Source: an uncultured archaeon
Lineage (GTDB): Archaea; Aenigmatarchaeota; Aenigmatarchaeia; GW2011-AR5
Reading direction: 5' to 3'
NCBI GenBank assembly: GCA_964371455.1
Contig: CAYJMB010000001.1
Location: 1-55,800, forward strand
DNA: 55,800 nt
Below are positions 14,433-55,635 of this stretch, in pieces (the first letter of the stretch is position 1; the number at the start of each line of letters is the position of its first letter). A program made the translations under genes and the position numbers. The notes beneath the pieces are model-generated. The model had not been told where the DNA came from and ran no database searches. It saw only the letters and a program-made list of their open reading frames with translations.

Positions 14433-14669
14433 ATGAAAGACGTTTTGAGAGATAAGATGCTCGCAATTGCGCTTCTTTTAATAGGGATAATTTTTGTTAT
14501 AGAAGGCGTGGTTGTCATGTACGTGCTGGGGCTGTTCCCGCCCTTTATTCTGCAATCAAACCCGCAAGTTGCGCAATTCGTGTCCATTGGGTGGGGATAT
14601 GGGATGCTGAAGCTTCTTGTAGGCCTGATAGCTACAGGGACTGCTGGTGCCATTCTTTTTTCACGCTAG
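14433..14669 (+). CDS. Small two-TM membrane protein
   Basis: The 78 aa product has two clear hydrophobic helices and sits tightly after nac. Confidence 0.4.
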   Translation: MKDVLRDKMLAIALLLIGIIFVIEGVVVMYVLGLFPPFILQSNPQVAQFVSIGWGYGMLKLLVGLIATGTAGAILFSR

Positions 14670-14704
14670 ATGGGTTTTTATTTTTGTGTGTGTACTTTTG
14701 ATAT

Positions 14705-30446: not shown

Positions 30447-31481
30447 ATGTACTATGACATTAGAATGAGATATGCGAAGGAGGAGAAGACAAGGATCAGA
30501 CAAATAGAGGAAGATATACAGCGAGCACTAAAGGAGATCATAAATATTATTAGAGACAAATTCAGCAACTATGTACTTTCTTTCGGGCTTACAGGACCTA
30601 TGGCGCACGGTGAAGGCACTATATTTTTTCAGCAGGATCAAATAACTGGCAGCGATATAGATCTTGCGATTGTGACAAAATACCGTTCGCTTAGAAAACA
30701 GAAAGCACTGGAAAGAGAAATCAAAATAGCATTTTCTTGTTCAGGCTTGGAGGCGGGACCGCTGTTTTTTGCACCGAGCATATTTGATAGGCCTGATCTG
30801 CTCTTTGTGGAATACGCGAAAGCAGGAAAAGTTCTCTTTGGTGAGAAAGTCAGATGCAATAAAGATATAGCTGTCTGGGAAGCTGCAAAGATACTTACAT
30901 CACGATGCGGCGCATTTTTTGATTCCGTTTCATTCAATAGCGGAATAAAGTTCTCTCAGAAATTTCCTTATGCATGGTCAAAATCTGTCATGGCTGCTGC
31001 AGAGGCTATGCTCGTGCTGGAAAACAGATATGCATTCTCCATTCAGGCACGCACGATGAAGATAAAGAATTCCAAATATGCGAAACTCATGCCTGGATTT
31101 CTAAATCTCTATCAAAAGGCATATACATGCAGGTATTCTGGAAGGATGCCGCAACAAAAAGGTCTTATTGAGAAAACAGCAAATTTTATCTCTTTCGCGT
31201 TTGAAGAGACAGCCAAGAAGCTGGCTGAGAAGAGCGGGAGAGATATTGCAAATCTCAGTGCGCCGTTTCCCAGCATAATTTCCACACGCTTTTTCTATTT
31301 CATAAATATGCTTAAGAATGAGCATCTAAGCATCCCGCTCTCCGAACCTTTGGTTAAAGAATTCGCAGAAATGGGAAAAATGTTTGGACAGCTCAGATCC
31401 AGTGAGATTCCAGAAGAAAAAACAAGGCAGCGCGTTGTACGATTATGGAAACATGCAGAGAGATTCTGGTTGCCTTATTAA
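30447..31481 (+). CDS. Pol-beta-superfamily nucleotidyltransferase-fold protein with helical C-terminal domain
   Basis: GLTGPMAHGEGT...GSDIDLAIV fits the hG[GS]-x(n)-D-x-D minimal NTase signature. The rest is alpha-helical and has no motif I recognise. Confidence 0.4.
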   Translation: MYYDIRMRYAKEEKTRIRQIEEDIQRALKEIINIIRDKFSNYVLSFGLTGPMAHGEGTIFFQQDQITGSDIDLAIVTKYRSLRKQKALEREIKIAFSCSGLEAGPLFFAPSIFDRPDLLFVEYAKAGKVLFGEKVRCNKDIAVWEAAKILTSRCGAFFDSVSFNSGIKFSQKFPYAWSKSVMAAAEAMLVLENRYAFSIQARTMKIKNSKYAKLMPGFLNLYQKAYTCRYSGRMPQQKGLIEKTANFISFAFEETAKKLAEKSGRDIANLSAPFPSIISTRFFYFINMLKNEHLSIPLSEPLVKEFAEMGKMFGQLRSSEIPEEKTRQRVVRLWKHAERFWLPY

Positions 31482-33740: not shown

Positions 33741-35915
33741 TCAATAGTATGTCATCCCTTCTTTTATGGCCTCGCGCCCCTTTTTACAGAACTCTAAAAT
33801 CTCTTCAGCAGTAAGATTATTATGTTTGATAAGAATCTGGTTTGCGCCACCTTTGCCGACCTGGTAGTAATTTTCCCAGTTGCTGTCTTGCGGCTTTATG
33901 ATTTCTATGCCAAAATTCTGCGGATTTTCCCAGAGCGGAGTTGCTGGAAAAGGCGTGAGTGGATAGAAATCGCAATATTCTATTTTTAAAGACTTTGCAA
34001 ATTCGATTGTCTGCTGTATGGTTTCCCTTGTTTCGCCGGGCAGGCCTATAATAAAGAAGCCTTTTACCTTAATGCCCAGGTCATGGCACCAGTTCACTGT
34101 TTGTCGTGTTCTTTCCAGACTGGCGCCTTTGCGGATATTCCTGAGAATCTGTTCATTGCCGGACTCAAAACCGAAGCTCAAGACGTCGCAACCTGCTGAT
34201 TTCATTGCTTTGAGCAGCTCATAATCTACGAGGTCCACGCGCGTAGTGGCGCGCCACTTGACCGGCGGTAGGCGTTCTTTTATTAATCTACAGATTTCAT
34301 AGACACGCTGCTTGTTGAATGTGAATATATCATCAACAAAATAAAATGCATGTATGTTGTACTTGTTCACCAAGAGCTCAAGCTCGTTTACGACATTTTC
34401 AGGACTTCTCGGCCGCCACTTCTTTATTTTGGCAGAGCCGCAGTTATGAACTAGCACATAATTAGCAAAAAAATTGTTGTGCGGTTTACAATTCAGGTTG
34501 TAAACGACCGTTTTTCCATAAAAATTTTTTATCTTTTTAACTTTCATGCCATTTGTAATGAAACTGCCTACCTTGTTTATAATGTGATCTGCTCCTTTTT
34601 GCAAGTCATGGCCCCAAACAACTAAAGTTTCATAGCCATTGTCCAAATAATATTTTAGTTTTTTCTCATCTTTTTCTGTCTGTCCGCTAAAGCCACAATC
34701 CTTGCATTTATGCCAATAACAACCAAAAAATTCTATTATCTTTTTCTTTTCTACGTGTACCCAGTCGGGAAAGAAAGTCCCTACAGGTCTTTCAAAAAAT
34801 GAAGTATATAAAAATTGATTCGGGAACTTTTCCTGAATAATTTCATTCAAGCGTAATTCTTCTTTATTCTCTATGCGCGCCCTTACTTTATGAAATCTCT
34901 CCCTCTGATTTTCTGGAGGATTCGCCATAGGATTATTTGTCAGTGCAATAACTCTCTGCCTTTCGCTAACCATCCGGCGACCTGCCTCTGTTTCTAGATA
35001 ATAAACAATTTCTTCACGTCCCCTCGTTTCCTCTTCTGTGGGAATATGAACTGGCATTTTTTTATTGAAAGAAATTTTATCTTTCGGGGTGATATGATGC
35101 AAGATATTGCCTGGTTTTATTTTGCCTGCTGCAACCCATTCTCCAGCGATGTAAAATGGATGTTCTGGAGTCGTTTTAATTAATGTGCCATCTTCCAGAG
35201 TTATTTCCAACATTTCATTGACACTTCTTTTAAATACTTCCTTCACTTCCGTTTCAACCAATAGGCCACCATCAAATGCAATCATTTTGTCTCCTATTTG
35301 GATATCTTTTATTTTTTTGTTGGGCGAGTTTGATGTGATAACCGTCGTGTTGCCATCCAGACAAAACACGCATCCATAAACACAGCCACGACTGGATGAG
35401 ATTGTAATCGCTTTCTCACCGCCAATAAGCATGGAGTACCTTTCAAGCTTGATGCCCTCGTAATCAGGGAGTGGCAATGTGTCCAGATTTTCTATCGGCG
35501 ACGACACTATTATTTTGATGTTCGGCCTTTCTTCTATAATTTTTTTAAGTCCGTTTTCCCCATCACCAACTACAACATAGTCAAATGCTTCAAGGGTTGG
35601 TTTTTCATTTGGGATGTCTGTGACGTGATTTCCGCCAGCAACAAGAAGACCCTGGAAGCCGGCAGCACGAATCTCTTTTGCCATGGTTATGCAGTTTTTA
35701 TAATTTGGCGTTGAAACAGAAATGCAGACAATATCAGGCTTTTCACATTTTATTGCTTCCATCAACTGTTCTTTGGTTTCGTGATTCATGTCAAATAGCT
35801 CTGTTTCATGGTCTATGCTTTTGAGATAAGAAGACAGGTAAGCAATTCCTAAAGGAGGGCGGTCTCCAGGATTCTCAAGAAACCAATCATGCGGGCTGAT
35901 AAGAAACGCTAACAT
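33741..35915 (-). CDS. B12-binding-domain radical SAM enzyme interrupted by an intein
   Basis: The N-extein is a B12-type domain ending ...SSRGCVYGCVF. The C-extein reads CGSAKIKKWRPRSPENVV...FYFVDDIF..., a standard radical SAM core. The 307 aa insertion carries intein blocks. Confidence 0.8.
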   Translation of the reverse strand: MLAFLISPHDWFLENPGDRPPLGIAYLSSYLKSIDHETELFDMNHETKEQLMEAIKCEKPDIVCISVSTPNYKNCITMAKEIRAAGFQGLLVAGGNHVTDIPNEKPTLEAFDYVVVGDGENGLKKIIEERPNIKIIVSSPIENLDTLPLPDYEGIKLERYSMLIGGEKAITISSSRGCVYGCVFCLDGNTTVITSNSPNKKIKDIQIGDKMIAFDGGLLVETEVKEVFKRSVNEMLEITLEDGTLIKTTPEHPFYIAGEWVAAGKIKPGNILHHITPKDKISFNKKMPVHIPTEEETRGREEIVYYLETEAGRRMVSERQRVIALTNNPMANPPENQRERFHKVRARIENKEELRLNEIIQEKFPNQFLYTSFFERPVGTFFPDWVHVEKKKIIEFFGCYWHKCKDCGFSGQTEKDEKKLKYYLDNGYETLVVWGHDLQKGADHIINKVGSFITNGMKVKKIKNFYGKTVVYNLNCKPHNNFFANYVLVHNCGSAKIKKWRPRSPENVVNELELLVNKYNIHAFYFVDDIFTFNKQRVYEICRLIKERLPPVKWRATTRVDLVDYELLKAMKSAGCDVLSFGFESGNEQILRNIRKGASLERTRQTVNWCHDLGIKVKGFFIIGLPGETRETIQQTIEFAKSLKIEYCDFYPLTPFPATPLWENPQNFGIEIIKPQDSNWENYYQVGKGGANQILIKHNNLTAEEILEFCKKGREAIKEGMTYY
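34443..35363 (-). mobile_element. Class-1 intein (307 aa) with Vsr-like PD-(D/E)xK nuclease domain
   Basis: Block A is CLDGNTTVIT, block B is TTPEHPFYI, and blocks F/G are VVYNLNCKPHNNFFANYVLVHN, followed by a +1 Cys. Boundaries were verified at the nucleotide level (tgt at 35363-35361; aac|tgc at 34445-34440). The internal PDWVHVEKKKIIEFFGCYWHKCKDC...LDNGYETLVVWGHDL resembles the Vsr core. Confidence 0.8.
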
Positions 35916-43433: not shown

Positions 43434-44219
43434 TCATTTCCCGTCTGGAGAAGGCGGAGGAATTATCAGATTATCGTGCGCCAACTTGTTTGCCTCTTCG
43501 TATGCCTGTAGCGTGCCGATGTCTATCCAGAATGTTATCTTTTCTGTAAAACCGGCAAGCTTACCTTTTGCAGCAAGCAAGGGGAAAAGACTATCCTCTA
43601 TTTTGATTTCCCTGTCCTCTACCAGCTCTTCTACTTCATCTAATTCAAGAATATAGTACGCAGCGTTTGCCAACAGCGATTCAGGAACACGGGGCTTTTC
43701 AACGAATTTTTCTATCAGCGTAAAGCCGACCTCTTTTTTGATATTGGCTACCCCAAGGCGCTTTGCATTCTCTTCCGTGACTTCAAACAAGGCAACAGTT
43801 GCTGATGTGCCCAGGGCAGCGCGGCATTCTTTATGATAATCCAGCAGATCGGCTACGTTCACGTCAGAAAGGCTGTCCCCATAGGCGACGACAACAGGAC
43901 CTGATTGCAGGCCGCATTCTCTTAAAACTTTTTTTAAATCACCTGCTGTTTCTTTCTGTTCTGTCCTGACCGTCCTGATTGCTCCGCTGTATTTCTCACC
44001 CAGATACTTTTCTATGCAAAAGGCCTGGATTCTGGATAATTCATCTATGTTGCCTGCTATTGCCACTATGATTTCGTCTATTTCGCTGCTTTTTTTCAGG
44101 TTGCCTATGACCCAATCTATGATGGGAACACCTTTCACGGGGAGAAGAGGCTTAGGCACTCCATAAGTAAGCGGCCGCAACCTTGTGCCCTTGCCTGCAG
44201 CAAGAATTATAGCTTTCAT
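43434..44219 (-). CDS. Sugar-1-phosphate nucleotidyltransferase
   Basis: It has the canonical loop MKAIILAAGKGTRLRPLTYGVPKPLLPV, then YGDSLSDVN and EKFVEKP. Sugar specificity cannot be determined from the sequence. Confidence 0.8.
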   Translation of the reverse strand: MKAIILAAGKGTRLRPLTYGVPKPLLPVKGVPIIDWVIGNLKKSSEIDEIIVAIAGNIDELSRIQAFCIEKYLGEKYSGAIRTVRTEQKETAGDLKKVLRECGLQSGPVVVAYGDSLSDVNVADLLDYHKECRAALGTSATVALFEVTEENAKRLGVANIKKEVGFTLIEKFVEKPRVPESLLANAAYYILELDEVEELVEDREIKIEDSLFPLLAAKGKLAGFTEKITFWIDIGTLQAYEEANKLAHDNLIIPPPSPDGK

Positions 44220-44510
44220 CTAACAACCTCCAGCACCAAATCTCCGAGCGTTTGGAAAATGAATGTTCATGTATTTACTGCATCCCTTTAGGGCAGTGTC
44301 TTTCGACCATATCTCTTCTATTTCAGAGGCTTTTGATTCGCTGTGAACGCCAATAGCCAGCTGAATAGTGTTGTCAAATAATGCAGCAAAAAGTGAGATA
44401 ATCGGTGATAGTGGAGACGTTGTTGCGTTACGTATCCCCAAATCAACTATTGCTTGCTGGGCTGCTTGTTCTGTGTAAGTTCCTTGAGGCCCGAGGTATC
44501 CTATCTCCAT
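44220..44510 (-). pseudogene. Prephenate-dehydratase-like relic (96 codons)
   Basis: MEIGYLGPQGTYTEQAAQQAI matches the PDT N-terminal signature (xxxYLGPxGTFxxxAA). The product is far too short, and it lacks the catalytic TRF region and the ACT domain. It is wedged between ugd and the NTP-transferase gene. Confidence 0.35.
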
Positions 44511-44514
44511 ATAA

Positions 44515-45819
44515 TCACCAGCAAACTCCTTCAGAACCTGAGACCTGCGCCTTGTCAAGGATGCAGCGGCCTTCTATGATGATTTTATTTTTCATAGAAG
44601 AAAAGTCGCTGTCCGCAAGCTCAGAAAATTCTTCCCATGCCGTCAGGATGAGACAGGCGTCTGCACCTTCTAGGGCTTCTTTTATAGAACTGACGTACTT
44701 TACAGTAGGAAATATCTTTTTCATGTTTTCATTTGCGAGAGGATCGTAAGCATAGATGATGGCATTTAGCTGGCGGAGCTCGCGGATGGTGTCAATAGCA
44801 ATAGAATCCCGGACATCGCCTGTGTTTTCCTTGAACGCCAGACCAAGAAGGGCTATCTTTTTTCCTGCAGGATTGATTTTGGTTTTCAGGATCTCTATGA
44901 TCTTTCTTTTCTGGATTTCGTTTGCTTTCATAACTGCGTCCAGCACATACGATGGCTCATTTTTCTCCCTGAAGAGAGAAGTCAGGGCCGAAATGTCCTT
45001 TGGGAAGCAGGAGCCACCGAAGCCGCAGCCTGCATTGAGGAAATAGGGGGATATGCGCTTGTCGTAACCCATACCGCGCGCAACTTCATAGATGTCAATG
45101 CCAAGCTTCTTGCAGAGGTTGCCCAATTCATTGATAAATGTCACCTTGGTTGCGAGGAATGCGTTAGACGCGTACTTTATCATTGCCGCTGTTTTTAGAG
45201 ACGTCCGCATGACAGGCGCGCCGAAATCCGCGTAGAGATTTTCAATGACATCGCCACTTCTTTTGTCAAATTCGCCAATGACGATGCGGTCCGGGTTCAT
45301 GAAATCGTGAAGAGCGAAACCCTCGCGCAGAAACTCCGGGTTCATGGCGATGCCGAAATCTGTGCCAGCGCGCTTGCCTGATGCCCTTTCTATAATTTTT
45401 GCAGCCTCTTCTGCTGTGCCTGGGAGAACTGTGGATTTGATGCAGATGACATGGTAAGCATTTTTGGTTTTAATCGCAGCAGCAATAGCATCAGCAGCAC
45501 TGGCGATCTGGCTCACGTCTATGGACCCATCCGGCTTTGACGGCGTACCGACGCAGATGAACGTTATGTCCGAGTTCTGGACTGCGTGTGTATAATCGGC
45601 AGTTGCAAAAATGAGTTTTTTACCAAGCGCTTCCTTGAGGCTGTCTGCTATATTTTCTTCGTAGAATGGCGGAATGCCTTTATTTATGTCGTTGACTTTC
45701 TCCTCATCCCTGTCGATACAGATACAGCTGTGACCATGATGGGCGAGACCTAAAGCAGTGCTCAAGCCTACATAACCTGCGCCTACTATGGAGATTTTCA
45801 TGATTATCTTCTTTAGCAA
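44515..45819 (-). CDS. ugd: UDP-glucose/GDP-mannose dehydrogenase-family enzyme (UDP-glucose 6-dehydrogenase-like)
   Basis: It has KISIVGAGYVGL, a catalytic FGGSCFPKD motif and a C-terminal UDP-binding domain. The likely start is M7 (45801). Confidence 0.85.
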   Translation of the reverse strand: MLKKIIMKISIVGAGYVGLSTALGLAHHGHSCICIDRDEEKVNDINKGIPPFYEENIADSLKEALGKKLIFATADYTHAVQNSDITFICVGTPSKPDGSIDVSQIASAADAIAAAIKTKNAYHVICIKSTVLPGTAEEAAKIIERASGKRAGTDFGIAMNPEFLREGFALHDFMNPDRIVIGEFDKRSGDVIENLYADFGAPVMRTSLKTAAMIKYASNAFLATKVTFINELGNLCKKLGIDIYEVARGMGYDKRISPYFLNAGCGFGGSCFPKDISALTSLFREKNEPSYVLDAVMKANEIQKRKIIEILKTKINPAGKKIALLGLAFKENTGDVRDSIAIDTIRELRQLNAIIYAYDPLANENMKKIFPTVKYVSSIKEALEGADACLILTAWEEFSELADSDFSSMKNKIIIEGRCILDKAQVSGSEGVCW

Positions 45820-45906: not shown

Positions 45907-46434
45907 TCATAAATTAACAACCAGTTTTGCGGCGGCAAGCAGGTCATCAGCAACAGCATCAGGTTTAGTGCCTTCATAATTCACACCGTAGCCGGTTCGC
46001 ACAAGGATGGTTTTGCAGCCTGCGCGCTTACCCATCTCTATATCAAGGGGCTTGTCGCCTACGACATAAGAGTCAGACAGACTGATGCCGTAGTCTTTTA
46101 CAGCACTTTCTAACATACCTGTATTAGGTTTTCTGCATTCACAGAGATCTAAAGGATGGTGCGTACAGCAATATACCTCAGTTATATGACCACCTGATTT
46201 TTCTATTTCTGTTCTCATCCTGCTGTGGATGTCAAGAAGGTCTTCTTTACTAATAATGCCACGTGCAACACCGCTCTGGTTTGTGACAACAAATATCATG
46301 TAGCTGTTCTGCGAGAGCAAAGCTATTGCTTCTTTAGAGCCTGGCAAAAAATAAAATTCATTCCAACTTTTAATGTAATTTTCGCTTTCTCTATTTACCG
46401 TTCCATCGCGATCCAGGAAGACTGCTTTTATCAT
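45907..46434 (-). CDS. gmhB: D-glycero-D-manno-heptose 1,7-bisphosphate phosphatase
   Basis: It has HAD motif I (FLDRDGTVN), the GmhB-specific Zn finger and motif (CCTHHPLDLCECRKPNTGM) and VGDKPLDIEMG. The start at MIKAVFLDRDG (46434) is preferred over the track start at 46497. Confidence 0.8.
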   Translation of the reverse strand: MIKAVFLDRDGTVNRESENYIKSWNEFYFLPGSKEAIALLSQNSYMIFVVTNQSGVARGIISKEDLLDIHSRMRTEIEKSGGHITEVYCCTHHPLDLCECRKPNTGMLESAVKDYGISLSDSYVVGDKPLDIEMGKRAGCKTILVRTGYGVNYEGTKPDAVADDLLAAAKLVVNL

Positions 46435-46451
46435 GACAACACCATGTACAC

Positions 46452-47066
46452 TTACCTGTTGCTGTCTTTTGAGAAAATATCCTTTACACCAAGCCAAATC
46501 CAGTGGAGAAGTTCAAAGTAACTAATTTGAACATTCTGCGTATCACCAGAAGGAATTACTATGGCTATATCAGAACGACCCACAATTTCATGACTCAACT
46601 CACCGTTTCCAACAATGCCAATTCGGTAAATTCCCATACATTTCGCGAGATCCAGTGCTCTCCTCACGTTAACAGCTTTGCCGCTTGTGCTTATTCCATA
46701 GATCACATCACCTGCTTTACCCATCGTTCGTAGCTGATATTCAAAGGCGTGTTGGTCTCCGTAATCATTAGAGATTGCTGTGACAGAAGACGCATCCGTT
46801 AACGACAAAGAACGAAACATTACACCTTCATAAGGCAGCGTATCACGAAATTCTCCTGCAAAATGCTGGGAATCTGCCGCACTTCCCCCATTGCCGCAGA
46901 AGTAAGCAGCGCCACCTGACCGAAAAACATCTGCAGTCAATATAAGAGCTCTTGCCACTTGGTCAAAAACTCCTGCTTCTTCAAATGCACTTCTTACTTT
47001 TGTATGTGCCTTATATCTCCGTTTCAAATTTCCAATCAGCTCTTGATCTATCTCGCTATTTACCAT
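46452..47066 (-). CDS. gmhA: Phosphoheptose (sedoheptulose-7-phosphate) isomerase
   Basis: It is a SIS domain carrying the GmhA signature YFCGNGGSAADSQHFAGEF, and its 204 aa length fits. Confidence 0.8.
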   Translation of the reverse strand: MVNSEIDQELIGNLKRRYKAHTKVRSAFEEAGVFDQVARALILTADVFRSGGAAYFCGNGGSAADSQHFAGEFRDTLPYEGVMFRSLSLTDASSVTAISNDYGDQHAFEYQLRTMGKAGDVIYGISTSGKAVNVRRALDLAKCMGIYRIGIVGNGELSHEIVGRSDIAIVIPSGDTQNVQISYFELLHWIWLGVKDIFSKDSNR

Positions 47067-47392
47067 CTAACCATCTCCTCTGTTCTTCCAGAAAATATTG
47101 AATTGGCCTGTCGTCTTTTGGGTACAATCGTGTCAATTCGGGTCCAATGCCCAAGTCTTTCAGTACTTTTGTCGTTAGTTGCTACAATTAATATTCCTCC
47201 GTTAGCGTGTCGCTGCAAGAACTCTTTTGCCTCTTCCAAGGCATTTGCGTGATGTGGTCTCACTGGATTGAAAGTGCCTACAGCTATTCCTGATTTCTTT
47301 CCTCGTTCCTTATAACTAGCAATTAATGTTCCAGCCTTATACAGGCTTATTACTTTTTCCATTTGCATACACTTCCAGTACCTTTTCAACAA
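47060..47392 (-). pseudogene. Truncated, degenerate paralogue of the adjacent heptose-1-P adenylyltransferase (cytidylyltransferase fold)
   Basis: IAVGTFNPVRPHHANALEEAKEF...ILIVATNDKS parallels the neighbour's VTTNGCFDILHIGHVRYLAEAKKL...VLMVGMNSDVS. However, the HxGH motif is RPHH and the C-terminal half is missing. It overlaps both flanking genes. Confidence 0.35.
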
Positions 47393-47837
47393 TATTTGTT
47401 GTAGACTTGCCTTCTGTTTTTGGGATCAGCACGACTTTGCCGCCTGCCTTTTCCACAGCACCTTTTTCTACACAATCCTTGATGCTATAGTCCCTGCCGC
47501 TGGCCTTGACGTGAACATCTGGCTTGATTTTTTCTACCCACTTGTTTGGCGTTTCGTCATCGAAAAGGAAAACGCAGTCTACTGATTTTATAGCATTGAG
47601 CATTTCTGCACGTTCTCTTTCCGGTATTATTGGCCTCTTCTCGCCTTTGAGCTTTCTCGCCGATACATCAGAGTTCATTCCCACCATAAGAACATCTCCC
47701 AGCTTTTTGGCTTCTGCCAAATAGCGGACATGACCTATGTGCAGAATATCAAAACAGCCATTTGTGGTAACAATCTTTTTACACTGCTTTCTACACTTAT
47801 CTGCGATTTTTATTGCTTCTTTCAAAGAGACGATCAT
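47337..47837 (-). CDS. hldC: D-glycero-beta-D-manno-heptose 1-phosphate adenylyltransferase (RfaE/HldE domain II type)
   Basis: It has the cytidylyltransferase signature TNGCFDILHIGHVRYL, GMNSDVSARKLKGEKRPI and a C-terminal KSTTNIVEKV. Confidence 0.8.
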   Translation of the reverse strand: MIVSLKEAIKIADKCRKQCKKIVTTNGCFDILHIGHVRYLAEAKKLGDVLMVGMNSDVSARKLKGEKRPIIPERERAEMLNAIKSVDCVFLFDDETPNKWVEKIKPDVHVKASGRDYSIKDCVEKGAVEKAGGKVVLIPKTEGKSTTNIVEKVLEVYANGKSNKPV

Positions 47838-47841
47838 TTAA

Positions 47842-48885
47842 TCACCAATTTTCCCAACTGTTATCAACAATTTTGCAGCCCTTTTTCAACTCGGCGAGAA
47901 GTTCTCTAGTTGTTAGTGTCTGTGTTCCGGATCTTCCAACAACAACACTTGCTGCATAATTTGATATAACTGCGGACTCACGCATACTGGCACCAGACAG
48001 GACAGCTGATGTAAACGCACTTGTAACTGTATCACCAGCTCCTGTGACATCCTGGACCTGCTTGTTATCTTTAATTGCACTAATTTGGACAAATCCTTTA
48101 GCGTCGTACAAAACCATACCCTCAGACCCTTTTGTTAGCAGCAAAGCATCTATGCGCTCGTTCTGCAATATACTGCGCGCTGCAATATGTTCTGGCATAC
48201 GTCTGTATCCATTGTGCCTTGCCATCTCTGACAAGTTTGGTTTCAAGAGTGTTGCGTTTCTATACTTTGAGAACTCGGCTTTCGGATCAACCGCGACAAA
48301 TTTACCTTGTTTTTTCGCTAAAGAGATTACATACTGGCACAGTCGAGGCGTGACAAAACCTTTGTCGTAGTCAGAAACGATCACCCCGTCAACATCGGCG
48401 ATTATTTTTTTTACCTTTAACATAGCGGATTTTTCTACCTTAGATGAAATCGGTTCTGTGTCCTCAGTGTCATTTCTGAATATATGCTGATTCTCACTTT
48501 CCGGCCAATTAAGCTCTTTTAAAATGCGCTCATCTACGCTAGTTGCTATCCCTCTTTCTTTTAATGTAGTCTTTCTTTTATTATCCACAATGAAGAGCGG
48601 CTCAATCCCACATTCTTTTATTTTTTGCTGCAAATACAACGCATTTTGGTCTTTCCCAATGACTGAGCAAAGATAAACAATGCCGCCGAGTGCTGCAACA
48701 TTTGCTGCAACGTTACCACAACCACCAGGGCTGTATACATCCCGCTCCCTTTCCAGTATGGGAATATTAGCTTCCGGAGAGCGCCTGCGCACGATTCCAT
48801 AAATTGTATGGTCTAACATCACATCGCCCACGACCAGTACAGAATGCCCGGGCATAGCACTCACAATGCTAACATAATTTGTCAT
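47842..48885 (-). CDS. hldA: D-glycero-beta-D-manno-heptose 7-phosphate kinase (RfaE/HldE domain I type, PfkB family)
   Basis: It has VLVVGDVMLDHTIYG, GGCGNVAANVAALGG and a C-terminal DVTGAGDTV ribokinase-family motif. Confidence 0.75.
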   Translation of the reverse strand: MTNYVSIVSAMPGHSVLVVGDVMLDHTIYGIVRRRSPEANIPILERERDVYSPGGCGNVAANVAALGGIVYLCSVIGKDQNALYLQQKIKECGIEPLFIVDNKRKTTLKERGIATSVDERILKELNWPESENQHIFRNDTEDTEPISSKVEKSAMLKVKKIIADVDGVIVSDYDKGFVTPRLCQYVISLAKKQGKFVAVDPKAEFSKYRNATLLKPNLSEMARHNGYRRMPEHIAARSILQNERIDALLLTKGSEGMVLYDAKGFVQISAIKDNKQVQDVTGAGDTVTSAFTSAVLSGASMRESAVISNYAASVVVGRSGTQTLTTRELLAELKKGCKIVDNSWENW

Positions 48886-48979
48886 ACTTTTTCATACTTT
48901 ATTAGTCTTTAAATACGTTGTGGAGCAGGGAGGCAATTTTCATAAAAGGTTTATTAGGCAGGCAGAGCCATGTAAATGT

Positions 48980-49591
48980 ATGAGGATTCTCAAGTCTTTC
49001 CCTGTTCAGGACAAGAAAACAGAGCAGGTGTCCAAGGTTTTTGATGCCGCGATAACTAAATTTGACTATCCATGGAGATTTGGCAGAATGGAGCTGCACC
49101 TCAGGGACGAAAACAAAGTCATGGCAAACGAAGAGGCGGGCATAATTGTTCTGGACTACAACGATGTCTTTATTCAGGCAATGGATGCCAAAGGGACTGC
49201 TGTCCTTATAATGAGGGCGCTATTCACGTTGATTACAAGAGAGATCTGCGGCAGCTTGCCCACTGTTATAGAAGATATTATTGCCAACAGAGAGATGATC
49301 AGGCAGGGATATGGCGACGCGCTTGTTTACTACTACTACCAGAAAAATATCAGTGAGCCAAGGCCATCCACCGCGGAAGATGATGTGCCCTGGCTGAGTT
49401 TCTACATCGATGACAGATACAATTCTGATTTTTTCAGACAGCAGAGAAAAGATAATAATGGGGCAGGAGATATGAACAATCTTGTAGAATGCCTCAAGCA
49501 AGACTTAACAGACAGAGACAAGCTAGGTACGGCGCTGCGCGTTTACTATGCGCTTAGAAAAGAAAAATTGCTCGTGTCAGGACTCGTGTGA
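48980..49591 (+). CDS. Hypothetical protein, no recognisable motif
   Basis: About 203 aa counted from ATG 48980 (the track ORF begins at GTG 48920). Its stop overlaps the GTG of the next ORF. Confidence 0.4.
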   Translation: MRILKSFPVQDKKTEQVSKVFDAAITKFDYPWRFGRMELHLRDENKVMANEEAGIIVLDYNDVFIQAMDAKGTAVLIMRALFTLITREICGSLPTVIEDIIANREMIRQGYGDALVYYYYQKNISEPRPSTAEDDVPWLSFYIDDRYNSDFFRQQRKDNNGAGDMNNLVECLKQDLTDRDKLGTALRVYYALRKEKLLVSGLV

Positions 49592-49596
49592 GGACC

Positions 49597-50403
49597 ATGC
49601 AGATAATCAAATATAAATGGGAGAACTGGAGGCCGCACTTCATTTTAAGGGATGAAGACGCGTTGGAAAAACTCGCACTGCTTGGCAGCGATGTCAGTTT
49701 CCACATTGGCAAGAAGCTGTGCACAGGCTTCGTGCGTGATGGCAAGCACTCCCCCTGCAAAAACAGGCGAGAAACAGAGGATATGTGCAACGAGTGCAAG
49801 CTTGAGGATGAATATTTCTTCTGCATACGGTGCGACGGCTCTGAATGTATAAACAGGAAAAAAAGAGACGAGTGCAAGAAAAATTATTATTATATTTACC
49901 TTGCTGCATTCGGACCATTGCTGAAAGTAGGTGTCTCACATGAATTTCGGTTGCTGGAGAGGCTGGTGGAGCAGGGGGCAGACTTCGGGGCGAAGATAGC
50001 AAGGGTGCAGGATGGCAAGCTTGTCAGGGCTATGGAACAGGAGATTAAGAAAGAGATAAAAATTGCTGACAGGATAACAGGCGAGCAGAAGTTTAGCACG
50101 CTTTTCGGGAACCCCAACGTTGCTGTTGCAAACATTTACAGGGCTATTTCTCTTCTGAAAACAAACGGGTTTGCCAAGCACCTGTCAGGGCCTGAGGTTT
50201 ATGATCTGAGGGAATACTATAATCTGCAGAATGTTATGTCACAGCCGCAAGAGATGGCAGTGCAAGAAGGATTGGACATTGCGGGCCGCGTGGTTTCTGC
50301 CAAGGGCAACCTGATAATCCTGCAGAAAGAAAAAATGTTCTTTTCTGTAAATGCGCACAGGCTGGTGGGCAGGGAAATAATACCATCAACGATTGTAATT
50401 TAA
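49597..50403 (+). CDS. Cys-rich (zinc-ribbon) protein, DUF2797-like
   Basis: It has Cys clusters (CKNRRETEDMCNEC...CIRCDGSEC). These are followed by YYIYLAAFGPLLKVGVSHEFRLLERLVEQGADFGAKIA, which resembles my recollection of DUF2797. Confidence 0.4.
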   Translation: MQIIKYKWENWRPHFILRDEDALEKLALLGSDVSFHIGKKLCTGFVRDGKHSPCKNRRETEDMCNECKLEDEYFFCIRCDGSECINRKKRDECKKNYYYIYLAAFGPLLKVGVSHEFRLLERLVEQGADFGAKIARVQDGKLVRAMEQEIKKEIKIADRITGEQKFSTLFGNPNVAVANIYRAISLLKTNGFAKHLSGPEVYDLREYYNLQNVMSQPQEMAVQEGLDIAGRVVSAKGNLIILQKEKMFFSVNAHRLVGREIIPSTIVI

Positions 50404-50426
50404 GATTTCAGCGCGTTATTAACATC

Positions 50427-51077
50427 ATGGAAGTCTTCAAGGGCATTCATATCATTCCTGGCATTGCCCACGACTCCAACATATACATAATTGATAACGA
50501 GATCGTTGTTGATACAGGAACAGGCGAATTCTTCCACCAAAACCGCAGAGATATTGAGAAAGCACTTGATATCAAAAGACTCAAGCTCATTGCCAATACA
50601 CACTACCACTTTGACCATACAGGAGGGAACAAGAAATTCCGAGACTGGCTGCGCGTGCCGATAGCGGTGCACCAAGCGGACAAGGATTTCATAGAACGAG
50701 GGAGAACGCTTGCTGAGTCCTTCAAGCAGGTTGCCAAGATTGTTACCATAGACAAAGAGCTCAGGGATGAAGATGTCATCACCACAGAAAATTTTGAGCT
50801 TTCTGTTCTGCACACGCCAGGGCACAGCGCTGGCAGCATCTGCATCTATGAACCGCAGAACAAGATACTCATATCCGGGGACACGCTTTTTGAAAATGCT
50901 GCGGGCAGGACAGATTTGCCAGGAGGCAACTACAATGAGATGAAGTTCTCGCTAGAGAAACTCGCAAAATATAACATTCAGTATCTTTTCCCTGGGCACG
51001 GCGCGCCCAAGACAGGCGGCGTGAACTTCCTGATAAAAAAGCTCCTCACGACGCTGGAGACAGCGACGATGATATAA
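50427..51077 (+). CDS. Metallo-beta-lactamase-fold hydrolase
   Basis: It has THYHFDHTGG (HxHxDH), HTPGHSAGS, GDTLF and PGHG. Confidence 0.8.
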   Translation: MEVFKGIHIIPGIAHDSNIYIIDNEIVVDTGTGEFFHQNRRDIEKALDIKRLKLIANTHYHFDHTGGNKKFRDWLRVPIAVHQADKDFIERGRTLAESFKQVAKIVTIDKELRDEDVITTENFELSVLHTPGHSAGSICIYEPQNKILISGDTLFENAAGRTDLPGGNYNEMKFSLEKLAKYNIQYLFPGHGAPKTGGVNFLIKKLLTTLETATMI

Positions 51078-51125
51078 ATATGCAGGATGGAATTTTCTTC
51101 TTCCAGTTCTCTATTTTTTATTACG

Positions 51126-52145
51126 CTATTTGACAGCAATAATCTTCTCCTTCTCGCCGATACTGAACTTCACGGGCAGGAACTTCTCTATGACCCAGAT
51201 GTTCGTCCTTGTGTGGCTTGTGATTTTCGGCACTCTGATTCTGCTGGGCGGGGCAAGGGCCATGTAAGGAAGGAGCTGGTCTTCTGCGTATTCATCCACT
51301 GCAGCAGCGGAAGCGATTTCAGCAAGCAGTTGTTTGGCTGCTTCTTCTCCGACTTTTTCTGCCGGCTTTGATTTTTCTCCCAAGGCACTGGCGCCGATAA
51401 CCGACTGCTCAGAGACAGCTTCAAGCTCTATGCCGGAGCCTGGCGATGCGGTGTCTAAATACAGCACATTTATTTCTGACGCTATGTCTGTATTGGCCAT
51501 AAGCTCTTTGACTGCAGCGTTCTTCTGGCGTTCTGCGACTTTTGCCTGTGACAAGCTTTTGGATGCATGCGAGATTCCTGATATCCTGACAAATTTTCCT
51601 CGCTCTGCCAGATTTAACGGAATGAGCTTTTTAGGAAATATTTCTGCCTCAGCTACAGCTCCGCCTGCGGGATAGTATCCGTATTTTTTGATGTTTATGC
51701 GTGCCTGATAACCCATTTTATTGAGCAATGGCAGCAAAACATTCTTTGTGTAATTCAATGGCGGTGCCCATTTGCCATGCGTGGCGCCGCCTGAGAATTT
51801 AATTGTGACAGGGCCTTCTGCATGCAGTGCAGCGATCATCATCGACTGCAGGACAAGGCCTATGCTGCCTGCGGTCGGAATTTTTACCTGTATTTCCCCA
51901 GATTTTATTTTCTTCGGGACAAATTCTATTTCTGTGCTACCGATTTCTAAACCAACGGCATCAGCATCACATAAGGCTGCTACTGCTTTTATTGCTTCCA
52001 GGTGCTGGTGCTTGAGACCTGGCTGAGGCCTGCCTTTGCGTATGTTGAAGATTCTGCAGGGCTGCTGCGTGACTGCTGAGAGGGCTATTGATGTTCTGAC
52101 TATCTGACCCCCAGCTTCCCCGACTGATCCGTCTATTTCGATCAT
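51126..52145 (-). CDS. rtcA: RNA 3'-terminal phosphate cyclase
   Basis: It has MIEIDGSVGEAGGQIVRTSIALSAV...IFNIRKGRPQPGLKHQHL, the canonical RtcA N-terminus. Its 339 aa length fits. Confidence 0.85.
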   Translation of the reverse strand: MIEIDGSVGEAGGQIVRTSIALSAVTQQPCRIFNIRKGRPQPGLKHQHLEAIKAVAALCDADAVGLEIGSTEIEFVPKKIKSGEIQVKIPTAGSIGLVLQSMMIAALHAEGPVTIKFSGGATHGKWAPPLNYTKNVLLPLLNKMGYQARINIKKYGYYPAGGAVAEAEIFPKKLIPLNLAERGKFVRISGISHASKSLSQAKVAERQKNAAVKELMANTDIASEINVLYLDTASPGSGIELEAVSEQSVIGASALGEKSKPAEKVGEEAAKQLLAEIASAAAVDEYAEDQLLPYMALAPPSRIRVPKITSHTRTNIWVIEKFLPVKFSIGEKEKIIAVK

Positions 52146-52224
52146 CTATGCCACTCTCAACTGCTCCATAGGCAACAATAGTCAATAAAGATAAAAAGAT
52201 TTCTTCCTCTAAAAATACTGGGGT

Positions 52225-52473
52225 GTGGCTGTGAGGCTTGTTAATCTGAGGGATGCCATTATTCTTTCAATGCTGCAGGACGGTTTTCAGTCAAAACAAG
52301 ACATTGAGCGCAAGTTCGGTATGCAGAAGTCTGTGGCACGACAATCGCTTTCTGTATTAAAAACATCAGGACTCATTGCAAAACAGAGGATAAACGGCAA
52401 TGACTTCTACCTCATTACAGACAAAGGGAACAAATCCATAAAGAAGGTTTACCAGAGGCTCAGCCTTGTGTGA
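52225..52473 (+). CDS. Small winged-helix DNA-binding protein
   Basis: ILSMLQDGFQSKQDIERKFGMQKSVARQSLSVLKTSGLIAKQ..NGNDFYLITDKG fits the wHTH pattern. It has a GTG start and is divergent from rtcA. Confidence 0.45.
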   Translation: MAVRLVNLRDAIILSMLQDGFQSKQDIERKFGMQKSVARQSLSVLKTSGLIAKQRINGNDFYLITDKGNKSIKKVYQRLSLV

Positions 52474-52533
52474 TCCGTTTCCAAACAAATGATACTATCA
52501 ACTTAAGGGTCTGTTGACAAATATGAATACATC

Positions 52534-53772
52534 TTAAATATCAACTGTTTCGCCGTTTGCGGGCGCATGGGCTTCAATGCCCAGATTAGATGAAATATCT
52601 TTTGCGAATTTTTGGCAATCGTCTCCGTGGACGCAGATCACTGTCTCTGGCCGGAGCTTCTCAATGATTTTGTAGAGGCCGGATTTGTCTGTGTGGGCAC
52701 TCAAGTCAAGCTTGTGCAAGCCGCACTTCACTCCGAAACGTTCATCAAGATTTTCGAAGATGGAGGTCTGCATCAAATTTCTGCCAGGCGTGCCCTCTAT
52801 GAGGAAGCCTGTGAATATGACTTTTGAATTGATATCGTCTTTTATTTCGCGCAGGTAATGCACAGCCGGGCCGCCGCCCAGCATGCCTGCTGAGGAGACT
52901 ATGACCTGGTGCCTGCGCAGGGCATTGAACCGCTCTTCATTGGATTTGATAAAATTAACCTTAGACATAATATTCCTCAGCTTTTTCGCGTTTTTCAGGT
53001 GCGCTCCATAGTCCTCAATAATCTCGCTTGCAGCTTTTACCATCCCGTCTATGGCAATGGTATCTGCATACTTTTCTAGAATAAGGAGAACTTCCTGGGA
53101 CCGGCCTACTGCAAAGACAGGAAACAGGACTGAACCTTCATTGGAAAGAGCTTCTTCAACGCAGTCCAGCAGTTTTCTTTCTTCCCCTTTCCTATCAGGA
53201 TGATTTTTGTGGCCATAGGTGCTCTCTGTGATGAGGATGTCTGCTTTCTTTGGGAGCACACAGCCATGCAAGAGATTGCTCTCATGCGTCTGGATATCAC
53301 CTGTGTAGAATATGCGCTTTTTTCCCTCGAGATAAATGCCAGCTGAGCCTGGAATATGGCCTGCATCATAGAGCTGGCATTTCATGTTGCCAAGAGTAAA
53401 ATGCTCACCGTACCTGACGATCTTGGTGTAGCGTATCATTTTTTTCAGGTCTTGCTTGGAAAATGCAGGATCAAATCCCTCCTTCCTCGCAACTTTCATG
53501 GAGTCCTTGATGAGGAGGGCAGAGAGCTCAAGCGTGACATCTGTCATGTATATGGGCGGCTTGGCTTTGCGGAAGAGCAGAGGAGTGCCGCCGCAATGAT
53601 CCAGATGGGCATGCGACAGCACAGCAAAATCCGGCTTGCAGTCAAGAGGAAATTTTGGCGGCACTGGCTCGATCTTTGTGCCATAATCAAGGACAACAGA
53701 TTTTTTGTCTTGGAGTAAGATAGCGCTGCGACCTACTTCCTGGCCTGCGCCTAGGATTGTGATCTTGGACAT
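52534..53772 (-). CDS. Beta-CASP-family MBL ribonuclease (aCPSF2-like)
   Basis: It has ITILGAGQEVGRSAILL, SHAHLDHCGG and beta-CASP motifs (ESTYG..., HGD at the C-terminus). It is 412 aa. Confidence 0.8.
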   Translation of the reverse strand: MSKITILGAGQEVGRSAILLQDKKSVVLDYGTKIEPVPPKFPLDCKPDFAVLSHAHLDHCGGTPLLFRKAKPPIYMTDVTLELSALLIKDSMKVARKEGFDPAFSKQDLKKMIRYTKIVRYGEHFTLGNMKCQLYDAGHIPGSAGIYLEGKKRIFYTGDIQTHESNLLHGCVLPKKADILITESTYGHKNHPDRKGEERKLLDCVEEALSNEGSVLFPVFAVGRSQEVLLILEKYADTIAIDGMVKAASEIIEDYGAHLKNAKKLRNIMSKVNFIKSNEERFNALRRHQVIVSSAGMLGGGPAVHYLREIKDDINSKVIFTGFLIEGTPGRNLMQTSIFENLDERFGVKCGLHKLDLSAHTDKSGLYKIIEKLRPETVICVHGDDCQKFAKDISSNLGIEAHAPANGETVDI

Positions 53773-54140
53773 TATGTAGAACCTCTTTTCTTTTTTGATT
53801 GCGACTATTAATAAAACAATCGAGATTGTCGAATGATCGCAATCCTGAATTATTTGACAACAAACAATCTCAACAAAGACACGTAGACCTGCCCAATAGA
53901 TTTAAAAACATGCCGCTCAAAGAAATCTTAGAGGCGATCACATGGACTACGATTATCAGCCGAAGGCGAGAAGCTTGGTCCAGTGTTAGCCAGGGCTCTG
54001 AACAAAAATCAGATACTGATTCTAAATGAAGTCGTAAAAGAAAGCGGCAACATAACAAACATCCTGAAGAATGTTTCTGATATGCGGGACAGGTTCAAGT
54101 CCGGCTGAGGGGACTAAAAGGAAAGAGAGGAGGAATCTAG

Positions 54141-54514
54141 ATGGAAGATGATTTGAAGGAAAGGCTTCTTGAACTTGTCAGGACGCACCCTGCTATAAAC
54201 AACAAGTTTCTCACTCGGTTCGCAAAGGGTGAGGCAATAAAAGAGTAAGTAGAAAGATTTGCCATAGAATTTTATCACTTTCTCAGATCGATAGGAATAG
54301 AGCCGATGCAAATAATAAAGAGACCGATGCTCAAGGCAACAAAGGCTTGGATTGATGCACAATCCACAGGGAATTGGAAGAGAAGCATGAGGATGCAATG
54401 GACGTCGTTGCAAACATGCTCAAGCCAGAGGCAGAACAATCGTTTAGGAGAGGAGTACTGGATGTGCTGAATGCTGAGGCATACTTTTGGTCTGGCATTT
54501 CTATGAAGAATTAA
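54141..54514 (+). pseudogene. Decayed heme-oxygenase-like (TenA/PqqC-like 'iron-containing redox enzyme') gene remnant
   Basis: MEDDLKERLLELVRTHPAINNKFLTRFAKGEAIKE is followed by a TAA at 54246-54248. It then continues in frame as VERFAIEFYHFLRS..., and a second frame carries ...EEKHEDAMDVVANMLKPEAEQSFRRGVLDVLNAEAYFWSGI. The gene therefore has an in-frame stop plus a frameshift. Confidence 0.35.
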
Positions 54515-54555
54515 CTTAAAAATAACAGAAATAAAGTAAGTTTAAGGGACAGGAT

Positions 54556-55635
54556 ATGGATTTGGAAAGAAGAATCGACTTGATAAAGAAACCGCCTACA
54601 GAGGAAATCATTACAGAGCAGGATTTGCGAGCACTTCTGGAAACAAAACAGAGGCCAGCAGCCTATGACGGGTTCGAGCCCAGCGGATTGCTGCACCTCG
54701 GTTCCGGAGTTGTCAGGGCGATAAAAATAAACGACTTCCTCGAAGCAAAAGTAGATTTTATTCTGTGGGTAGCGGACTGGTTTGGTTACATAAATAACAA
54801 GATGGGTGGCGACCTAGAGCTCATAAAAAAAGTAGGGGAGTATTTCATAGAGGGATGGAAAGCCTGTGGCGTTGACATCAAAAGAGTCAAGATACTGTGG
54901 ACAAGCGATGCTGTTAAAGACCCTGACTACTGGAAGGGTGTCATTGATGTTGCCAAGATTGCTACAGTACAGAGAACAATAAGGGCAAGCCCGATAATGG
55001 GGAGAAGCGAGGCCGACATAAAATATACTGCACAGCTTTTCTATCCCATGATGCAGGCATGGGATCCATTTTATTTCAAAGCCGATATATTACAACTCGG
55101 AATGGACCAGAGGCATGCAACGATACTATCCAGGGAATTGGCAGAAAAGCTCGGGCAGACACCAAGAGTTTGTGTGCACCACCACCTGCTTGCGGGCCTG
55201 CAGGGCCCCAAAGGCAGAATGGGGCAAGAGACAGCAACGCTTCAAATAGAGGATAAGATGAGTAAATCGAAGCCGCAGACTGCAATATTCATACATGACA
55301 GCGCAAAGGAAATAGAGGAAAAGATAAACAAGGCATTCTGCCCTGAAAAAACTATTGACGGGAACCCTCTGCTGGAAATCTGGAAATACGTAATTCTGAG
55401 GAAATTTGATTCAAGAACAATCAGCAGACCAGAAAAATTTGGCGGGGATATTGAGATCGCAAATTACCAGGAACTGGAGAATATGTTTAAAGAAGGCAAG
55501 ATTCATCCGTTAGATCTGAAGAAGGAAACATCTATTGCGGTAGATGAAATTTTAAAACCCGTCAGGAAACATTTTGAAAAACCGAAGGCAAAAAAACTCT
55601 ACGAGACTGTGAAGAATGCTCAGGTAACAAGATGA
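54556..55635 (+). CDS. tyrS: Tyrosyl-tRNA synthetase (archaeal type)
   Basis: It has YDGFEPSGLLHLGS (HIGH-type), KMSKSKP, RPEKFGGDIEI and HPLDLK. These align well with my recollection of the M. jannaschii TyrRS sequence. Confidence 0.85.
   Translation: MDLERRIDLIKKPPTEEIITEQDLRALLETKQRPAAYDGFEPSGLLHLGSGVVRAIKINDFLEAKVDFILWVADWFGYINNKMGGDLELIKKVGEYFIEGWKACGVDIKRVKILWTSDAVKDPDYWKGVIDVAKIATVQRTIRASPIMGRSEADIKYTAQLFYPMMQAWDPFYFKADILQLGMDQRHATILSRELAEKLGQTPRVCVHHHLLAGLQGPKGRMGQETATLQIEDKMSKSKPQTAIFIHDSAKEIEEKINKAFCPEKTIDGNPLLEIWKYVILRKFDSRTISRPEKFGGDIEIANYQELENMFKEGKIHPLDLKKETSIAVDEILKPVRKHFEKPKAKKLYETVKNAQVTR

Follow-up and report, generated by a model that had tools for sequence, protein, structure and literature searches.

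The GDP-D-glycero-alpha-D-manno-heptose pathway comprises GmhA, the GHMP kinase HddA, GmhB, and HddC, and serves the S-layer glycan of Aneurinibacillus and the capsule of Campylobacter. In archaea, functional enzymes for nucleoside diphosphate (NDP)-heptoses were reported by Tang et al. (Science 2024), with Methanococcus maripaludis being named, and ADP-heptose is made in vitro by enzyme sets each taken from a single organism, every kingdom, archaea among them, being represented at least once (commentaries PMC11461863 and PMC11573728). The reason why archaea make manno-heptose "remains elusive" according to the authors of the cross-kingdom study (PMC11573728). M. maripaludis strains KA1 and JJ harbour ADP-heptose clusters inside glycan-biosynthesis regions, and their genomes encode AglB (PMC12667266). 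A heptose, although a different isomer, is also a constituent of the N-linked glycan of Thermoplasma acidophilum (review, PMC11407970). Here, we analyse the first 55,800 nucleotides of contig CAYJMB010000001.1 from an uncultured archaeon, a stretch hereafter called the window, in which the block at 45907-48885 carries genes resembling hldA, hldC, gmhA, and gmhB. The explanation that we favour, with a probability of roughly 0.7, is a predicted NDP-heptose pathway that feeds glycosyltransferases of family GT9, a flippase, and the oligosaccharyltransferase AglB. A preliminary description of this DNA had implied that an archaeal ADP-heptose pathway is new. This was overstated, since archaeal ADP-heptose synthesis has already been published; what the locus adds is the linkage to GT9 and AglB genes and the exchange of heptose cassettes.

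The block contains the following open reading frames (ORFs):

47842..48885, minus strand: hldA-like gene, 347 aa
47337..47837, minus strand: hldC-like gene, 166 aa
47060..47362, minus strand: ORF-X between hldC and gmhA, 100 aa from an ATG, or extending to 47392 and 110 aa from an upstream TTG
46452..47066, minus strand: gmhA-like gene, 204 aa
45907..46497, minus strand: gmhB-like gene, 196 aa; likelier 45907..46434, 175 aa

According to the ORF listing, the four heptose genes are intact and co-directional and match the span 45907-48885 exactly, and each motif quoted in the preliminary description was recovered by string search in the expected protein. That description had spoken of four tightly packed genes; the packing is real, but the number of ORFs is five, as ORF-X, which occupies the 270-nt interval between hldC and gmhA and overlaps both neighbours, had been overlooked. 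The junctions (a 4-nt gap between hldA and hldC, a 26-nt overlap of hldC and ORF-X, a 7-nt overlap of ORF-X and gmhA, and a 17-nt gap between gmhA and gmhB) are operon-like. The last value is counted from an internal ATG of gmhB at 46434. This is probably the true start, as with it the gene no longer overlaps gmhA and as an independent gene caller chose the same ATG on related contigs. Identical proteins were found in four other sequencing runs, with the window's HldC being encoded in ERR4904390-92 and ERR3478686. The contigs with an identical HldC share the same gene order and apparently stem from the same organism, so that they add no evolutionary depth.

The four proteins were assigned to families by the curated equivalog cut-offs of NCBIfam, by Pfam, and by sequence searches against solved structures in the Protein Data Bank (PDB). 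The profile E-values (HldA 4e-86, HldC 2e-55, GmhA 2e-31, GmhB 3e-55) exclude chance similarity. Pfam resolves the proteins to superfamily level only (PfkB, CTP_transf_like, SIS_2, and HAD, respectively); the top NCBIfam match is a heptose family by a wide margin in all four cases, with HldC and GmhB above the curated cut-offs, HldA slightly below, and GmhA clearly divergent. HldA reaches 288.9 bits with TIGR02198 (cut-off 345) and leads over the next family, ribokinase (64 bits), by more than 220 bits. Its closest solved structure is the Burkholderia HldA 4E84 (E=3e-39), followed by another PfkB kinase at 8e-14, and both the GDxxLD N-terminal motif and the GAGDT C-terminal catalytic-Asp motif of the PfkB fold are retained (VLVVGDVMLD at aa 16, DVTGAGDT at aa 279). 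HldC scores 186.7 bits with TIGR02199 (cut-off 181.5), compared with 54.5 bits for the next family, glycerol-3-phosphate cytidylyltransferase, and at most 21 bits for FAD-synthetase models. It has a cytidylyltransferase-like fold, the motif TNGCFDILHIGHVRYL at aa 25, and the nucleotidyltransferase motifs HIGH (HxGH, aa 33-36) and KSTT (aa 144-147). The best PDB match of HldC is 5X9Q (E=1e-28), deposited as "putative cytidylyltransferase" and containing an RSTT motif, which we take to be HldC of Burkholderia pseudomallei. GmhB exceeds the cut-off of the beta-type model NF006506 (186.7 versus 178 bits) and scores 105 bits with the alpha-type model NF050049 (cut-off 250), so that the beta-type assignment is ahead. 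Its best PDB matches, 3L8H, 4PNH, and 3L8E, precede HisB-N, and it shows FLDRDGTVN at aa 27 with the HAD nucleophile DRDGT (DxDGT) as well as the CxH...CxC zinc loop CTHHPLDLCECRKP.

GmhA is the most divergent of the four. This SIS_2 protein reaches 109 bits with NF010546 and 107 bits with TIGR00441 (cut-offs 276 and 209), yet GmhA models occupy the top four NCBIfam positions ahead of DiaA (67 bits), the 13 best PDB matches are phosphoheptose isomerases, again followed by DiaA, and the KpsF/arabinose-5-phosphate isomerase model gave no match. The motif CGNGGSAADSQHFAGEF was located at aa 57 by string search. The zinc and catalytic residues of the Neisseria gonorrhoeae enzyme, H61, E65, Q175, and H183 (PMC5387315), align with H68, E72, Q180, and H188, all of which are conserved. 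After the last beta-strand, where the Campylobacter jejuni, N. gonorrhoeae, and B. pseudomallei structures have a QExH box, the window protein reads QISY. Related metagenomic loci, designated by L and a number, show QIGY (L007), QQCY (L010), and the canonical QEMH (L008) at this position. The protein belongs to a subclade of six members sharing 81% and 52-57% identity, bacterial GmhAs following at no more than 46%. Two of these members, in L010 and L012, are part of HddA-type heptose cassettes at the same chromosomal site; this membership supports GmhA function, because the first step is common to the ADP-beta and GDP-alpha heptose routes. Taken together, profiles, PDB matches, and catalytic and zinc residues bear out the four-enzyme identity advanced in the preliminary description, and the competing assignments listed there (ribokinase, FAD synthetase-like, KpsF, or another HAD subfamily) all fall behind.

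From gene presence, family assignment, conservation of catalytic residues, and linkage across genomes, we infer a route whose activities, nucleotide, acceptor, and N-glycan destination are predictions. GmhA would isomerise sedoheptulose 7-phosphate to heptose 7-phosphate, the PfkB kinase HldA would phosphorylate the latter at C1 to beta-heptose 1,7-bisphosphate, GmhB would remove the 7-phosphate to yield beta-heptose 1-phosphate, and HldC, which is encoded separately from the kinase, would transfer AMP from ATP to form ADP-D,D-heptose. The D,D isomer is the probable product because no convincing HldD was found. The heptose could then be attached by three GT9 proteins to a lipid-linked oligosaccharide at the cytoplasmic face, translocated by a MOP-family flippase, and transferred by a two-subunit STT3/AglB, most likely to asparagine residues of surface proteins. 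That the window's four enzymes make an NDP-heptose is very probable; that this heptose feeds the GT9 proteins for a surface glycan is likely, though less certain; and the chances that the glycan is an N-glycan transferred by AglB are about even.

The genes proposed for these later steps lie in a single glycan island extending from 19797 to 48885, with the heptose block at its end:

19797..20993, plus strand: STT3/AglB N-terminal membrane half, 398 aa, Pfam STT3 93 bits
20994..22325, plus strand: STT3/AglB C-terminal half with the catalytic-motif variant YWDPG, 443 aa
22358..23890, plus strand: MOP-family (Wzx/MurJ-like) flippase, Pfam Polysacc_synt 100 bits, MurJ 49 bits
23939..24838 and 24820..25698, plus strand: two short-chain dehydrogenase/reductase (SDR) epimerase/dehydratase genes, best models dTDP-glucose dehydratase, GalE, or LegB
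25760..26830, plus strand: GT9 heptosyltransferase a, putative (GT9a), PF01075 120 bits, TIGR02195 124.6 versus 134.6
26799..27917, plus strand: GT9 heptosyltransferase b, putative (GT9b), PF01075 73 bits, 66% identical orthologue in L013
42359..43429, minus strand: GT9 heptosyltransferase c, putative (GT9c), PF01075 123 bits, best NCBIfam models lipopolysaccharide (LPS) heptosyltransferases I and II, below cut-off
43434..44219, minus strand: sugar-1-phosphate nucleotidyltransferase, AglF/GalU-like, Pfam NTP_transferase 115 bits
44220..44558, minus strand: prephenate dehydratase N-terminal fragment ORF, Pfam PDT 41 bits, residues 19-69
44515..45819, minus strand, same direction as the heptose block: UDP-glucose 6-dehydrogenase, AglM-like, NF041297 475 bits (cut-off 670)

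The island begins with the two STT3 halves, the flippase, the two SDR genes, GT9a, and GT9b, continues with GT2 glycosyltransferases, B12/radical-SAM and SPASM enzymes, methyltransferases, a deacetylase, and a phosphodiesterase, and ends with a second NTP-transferase, GT9c, the NTP-transferase at 43434..44219, the AglM-like UDP-glucose dehydrogenase, and the heptose block. The preliminary description had placed the heptose genes in an island headed by AglB and a flippase; the island is genuine, but AglB is about 24 kb away, on the opposite strand, and consists of two ORFs. All three GT9 proteins exceed the PF01075 threshold of 22 and stay below the equivalog cut-offs of LPS heptosyltransferases I, II, and III, the closest approach being the TIGR02195 score of GT9a. 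GT9a has a 70% identical orthologue in L013 downstream of AglB and the flippase, and GT9c is 55% identical to a GT9 protein whose gene adjoins gmhB in L008. In an archaeon, a different GT9 acceptor is to be expected. The three proteins, which the preliminary description did not mention in this connection, are the natural predicted consumers of ADP-heptose, GT9c being a likely one.

The predicted oligosaccharyltransferase is split in two. The N-terminal half aligns with residues 2-260 and 383-448 of A. fulgidus AglB-L (3WAJ), the C-terminal half aligns with residues 471-550 of human STT3A across WWDYG (E=3e-5), with YWDPGH opposite WWDYG, and the TAA stop codon of the first half directly abuts the ATG of the second. 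A metagenome scan with the C-terminal half yielded 76 loci. The search patterns, taken from the C-terminal half, introduce no bias towards split or fused genes, and are selective for YWDPGHF or LSDNWWN motifs. In 65 of 66 related loci (L008 and loci among L013-L086) the halves are separate ORFs, the fused form being present in L058; in L008, the C-terminal half is a 58% identical orthologue and likewise a separate gene. In most related loci the two ORFs differ in frame and overlap slightly, and each of the three stop codons is used in some of the loci; read-through by pyrrolysine or selenocysteine is ruled out by the TAA stop, the varied stop codons, and the frame changes. No description of a split AglB was found in the searchable literature, a coverage that does not extend to the phylogenetic AglB survey of Nikolayev et al. 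(2020).

In L006, L007, and L008, the heptose cluster occupies the same chromosomal site next to DUF2797, MBL, RtcA, beta-CASP, and aminoacyl-tRNA synthetase genes. The island of L008, with about 11 kb, has the order hldA-hldC-gmhA-gmhB-GT9-NTP-transferase-GT9-GT2-flippase-methyltransferase-AglB(C)-AglB(N). L077 contains a full set of HldA, HldC, GmhA, and GmhB and a GT9 gene within 6.3 kb of AglB, L038 an HddA-type set (11778..15654) directly after AglB with no GT9 gene detected in it, and L013, L040, and L072 pairs or triplets of GT9 genes after AglB and the flippase; orthologues of the window's flippase follow AglB in L008, L013, L040, and L072. This recurring linkage of heptose, GT9, flippase, and STT3/AglB genes, together with the three GT9 genes of the island, supports the earlier proposal that heptose is built into a lipid-linked glycan. 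The linkage is recurrent but confined to a minority: of the 22 loci that are 15 kb or longer, about 3 have heptose or GT9 genes no more than 10 kb from AglB, and heptose is thus an accessory feature of the clade's glycan.

In L010 (8972..16271) and L012 (1796..8930), a different heptose cassette with two GT9 genes is found at the same chromosomal site. It encodes an HddA-like GHMP kinase (NF049969, 266 bits; next family 112), GmhA, a HAD-IIB phosphatase, an NTP-transferase, and an SDR with a heptose epimerase as best model, and by its composition resembles the GDP-alpha-heptose route. ADP-type and GDP-like activation modules are thus interchangeable in the clade. Divergence within the heptose block is mosaic. 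Between the window and L007, the flank is 73-93% identical, HldA 37%, HldC 67.5%, GmhA 80%, GmhB 77%, UDP-glucose dehydrogenase 78%, and the NTP-transferase 82%; between the window and L008, the flank is about 70% identical, HldA 38%, HldC 59%, GmhA 33%, and GmhB 44%, so that HldA and GmhA are far more diverged than their neighbours. The positional orthologues of HldA in L006, L007, and L008 represent one common type, to which the window's HldA shows no more than 37-38% identity, and among 5.8 billion proteins it has no relative above 43% identity except itself, the best named matches being bacterial. In a neighbour-joining tree, it forms a long branch next to the clade of L006, L007, and L008, a placement compatible with replacement and with fast divergence alike.

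The window is archaeal, as the preliminary description had stated. It encodes Orc1/Cdc6, a family-B DNA polymerase, an HMG-CoA synthase/thiolase/DUF35 trio, SecDF, RtcA, and a beta-CASP nuclease, and the named relatives of the polymerase, from more than 15 metagenome-assembled genomes (MAGs) that differ in locus-tag prefix and include GW2011_AR5, are all labelled Ca. Aenigmarchaeota or Aenigmatarchaeota by their depositors. In a scan of species-representative genomes, the beta-CASP nuclease had two relatives, one with 85% identity on a syntenic groundwater MAG contig (Candidatus Aenigmatarchaeota) and the other with 75%. Aenigmatarchaeota is a phylum of the DPANN kingdom Nanobdellati. Scans of the window for tRNA and Rfam families found nothing, so that no RNA-based taxonomic marker is available. 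The polymerase (9530..12238, plus strand, 902 aa) is free of inteins, and those of several close relatives, including one with 83% identity, comprise 1300-1390 aa with an intein and LAGLIDADG domains. Third-position GC is 0.33-0.42 in the heptose block (45907..48885), 0.40 in the flippase gene, and 0.48-0.58 in the housekeeping flank (48920..55635); the low value of the block is compatible with, but no proof of, a foreign origin. The bacterial acquisition proposed earlier is plausible rather than proven, and any such transfer would be old, predating the divergence of the window, L006, L007, and L008, because all of them have the cluster at the same chromosomal site.

The dehydrogenase at 44515..45819, below the cut-off of NF041297, exceeds that of TIGR03026 (460 versus 190 bits) and is syntenic in L007. 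The NCBIfam matches of the NTP-transferase at 43434..44219 are ambiguous and all below cut-off; since the AglM-like dehydrogenase adjoins, an AglF/GalU-like function is likelier, and the enzyme probably supplies UDP-glucose. An HddC role for the window's two NTP-transferases is unsupported (60 bits against a cut-off of 300). Between dehydrogenase and NTP-transferase lies a segment of 295 nt with the ORF 44220..44558, which by its sequence corresponds to an inserted gene fragment with only the N-terminal approximately 50 residues of prephenate dehydratase; an insertion is indicated because the L007 spacer at the same position measures only 33 nt. As regards the two SDR genes, a candidate HldD was rejected (TIGR02197 104 and 81 bits versus 274.6, with better models elsewhere); an HldD epimerase was not recognised in the island, a result limited to the window.

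ORF-X resembles residues 2-89 of HldC, i.e., the N-terminal half (26% identity, E=2e-5; Pfam CTP_transf_like 17 bits, below threshold), and has RPHH in place of HxGH/HIGH and no C-terminal half. Gene calls on Logan contigs likewise include it, with a length of 100 aa. Its counterpart in L007 (17113..17622), the closest relative, is a 169-aa protein with the altered motif GTFNPARRHH, of which only the first 67-81 residues can be aligned with ORF-X, and the hldC-gmhA interval measures 733 nt there; L008 has no ORF-X gene. Judging from truncation and motif degeneration, ORF-X is most likely an inactive, decaying remnant of an HldC duplication. The most economical scenario is that the duplicate arose in the lineage of the window and L007, lost the canonical motif, and was then truncated in the window; the full-length form of L007 may be functional.

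Three further ORFs of the region were noted. An ORF of 223 aa without Pfam family (48920..49591, plus strand) is transcribed divergently from hldA and adjoins the cluster in L006, L007, and L008, with 49-83% identity in L006 and L007. Another without Pfam family (30447..31481, plus strand, 344 aa) lies inside the glycan island. The B12-binding radical SAM protein (33741..35915, minus strand, 724 aa) contains an intein (Intein_splicing, Hint, and PT-HINT over residues ~184-491) between its B12-binding and radical SAM domains.

A number of observations weigh against a functional heptose pathway feeding GT9 proteins, flippase, and AglB. GmhA and HldA are below their equivalog cut-offs, GmhA lacks the QExH box of the aligned GmhA structures, and the divergence of HldA, with 37% identity to its positional orthologues, is anomalous. 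None of the three GT9 proteins reaches an LPS-heptosyltransferase equivalog cut-off, and as GT9 genes accompany a GDP-heptose-like cassette in L010 and L012, the GT9 donor is uncertain in the clade. Between the heptose genes and AglB, 24 kb with many other glycan genes intervene, heptose or GT9 genes are close to AglB in no more than about 3 of the 22 long loci, and the MOP flippase and the glycosyltransferases would be just as suited to making a polysaccharide or a glycolipid. Finally, the truncation of ORF-X and the insertion of a gene fragment indicate a locus in flux, in which some decay may have occurred.

These points lend themselves to other readings, the foremost being a functional pathway whose heptose is destined elsewhere, namely for a polysaccharide or capsule exported by a Wzx-type route, for a glycolipid, or for the O-glycans of S-layer or pilus proteins. 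Flippases of the MOP family take part in polysaccharide export as well, and the island has many modification genes of kinds that are typical of polysaccharide loci, encoding methyltransferases, radical SAM/SPASM enzymes, a deacetylase, and a phosphodiesterase. The majority of the clade's AglB loci have no heptose genes nearby, and bacteria use ADP- and GDP-heptoses for LPS, capsules, S-layer O-glycans, and the heptosylation of autotransporters. Nevertheless, we regard such a destination as unlikely. Heptose cassettes or GT9 genes directly adjoin the split AglB and the flippase in L008, L077, L038, L013, L040, and L072, and the ORFs scanned, two of which are without a Pfam match, yielded neither a Wzy-type polymerase nor a regulator of chain length. 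Heptose as a constituent of an N-glycan also has a chemical precedent in archaea (PMC11407970).

An alternative of similarly low probability concerns the nucleotide: HldC might make CDP- or UDP-heptose instead of or besides ADP-heptose, so that the route would lead to an NDP-heptose other than, or not only, ADP-heptose. The C-terminal specificity motif of HldC, KTEGKSTT, has a basic lysine at the position of the arginine in the promiscuous STTR5 enzymes, and this lysine is retained in L007 (KIEGKSTT) and L008 (KEAGKSTT). STTR5 enzymes, which accept various nucleoside triphosphates and occur in archaea, are marked by arginine at position 5 of (F/L)xxGRSTT (PMC11573728). The published hallmark is thus arginine specifically, and no data on lysine were found; HldC has lysine at position 5 and, instead of F/L, also at position 1. 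Moreover, it passes the adenylyltransferase equivalog TIGR02199, and according to PMC11461863 ADP-heptose was produced by every enzyme tested, whichever kingdom it came from. A decaying or non-functional cluster, or a non-heptose substrate for at least one protein belonging to another PfkB, SIS, or HAD subfamily, is very improbable, for although GmhA and HldA score below curated cut-offs and the window differs from L007 in that ORF-X is truncated, a piece of a prephenate dehydratase gene has been inserted, and HldA has diverged strongly, none of the four ORFs is shortened and all retain their catalytic motifs, their margins over other subfamilies are large, identical proteins recur in the four other sequencing runs, and GmhA, GmhB, and HldC are 67-80% conserved with L007.

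If the pathway feeds GT9 proteins, flippase, and AglB as proposed, the repeated linkage to these genes offers a testable answer to the published question, heptose being a building block of archaeal glycans, and provides named candidate transferases. No archaeal heptosyltransferase associated with AglB was found in the literature searched, nor anything linking DPANN or Aenigmatarchaeota to heptose pathways beyond incidental mentions of heptose in DPANN. As cell-surface structures of DPANN archaea are thought to mediate attachment to the host (10.1101/2023.10.27.564410), a variable heptose-containing surface glycan could matter biologically. More tentatively, and with the odds rather against it, one may imagine that heptose is an N-glycan building block in Aenigmatarchaeota, assembled on a lipid carrier by GT9-type enzymes and transferred by a split YWDPG oligosaccharyltransferase, with ADP-beta and GDP-alpha-like modules being swapped and HldA and GmhA replaced piecemeal. 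Were this true, episymbiotic archaea could vary their surface glycans by exchanging activation modules, the question of why archaea make manno-heptose would be answered, and the first two-piece STT3 would be defined. With about 40% identity to characterised enzymes, the window proteins are also useful test cases for specificity rules, in particular the lysine of HldC and the box variants of GmhA.

Among the described systems, T. acidophilum provides the chemical precedent for heptose in an asparagine-linked archaeal glycan, but it is another organism, and the accessible text of PMC11407970 describes no genetic link to HldA or HldC. The GDP-heptose route has the first step, GmhA, in common with the window, whose cassette is of the PfkB/HldC type (beta, ADP) and not of the GHMP/NTP-transferase type (alpha, GDP). 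The bacterial ADP-heptose pathway has the same four enzyme families, the same predicted chemistry, and GT9 heptosyltransferases as assumed consumers, and the window proteins find their closest solved structures there (Burkholderia HldA 4E84; 5X9Q for HldC; the bacterial GmhAs 1TK9, 5I01, and 2X3Y; 3L8H, 4PNH, and 3L8E for GmhB). The window enzymes are only about 40-46% identical to bacterial homologues and differ from them by QISY for QExH in GmhA and by lysine at the STTR5 position in HldC; their host is an archaeon without outer membrane or LPS, HldD is unrecognised in the island, and the genes belong to an STT3/AglB-flippase island instead of an LPS core locus. M. maripaludis, as described, resembles the window in being an archaeal host with a heptose cluster in a glycan region and AglB in the genome; it is a euryarchaeal methanogen, whereas the window represents a DPANN archaeon of the Aenigmatarchaeota, whose pathway genes are linked to three GT9 genes and to an AglB encoded in two parts.

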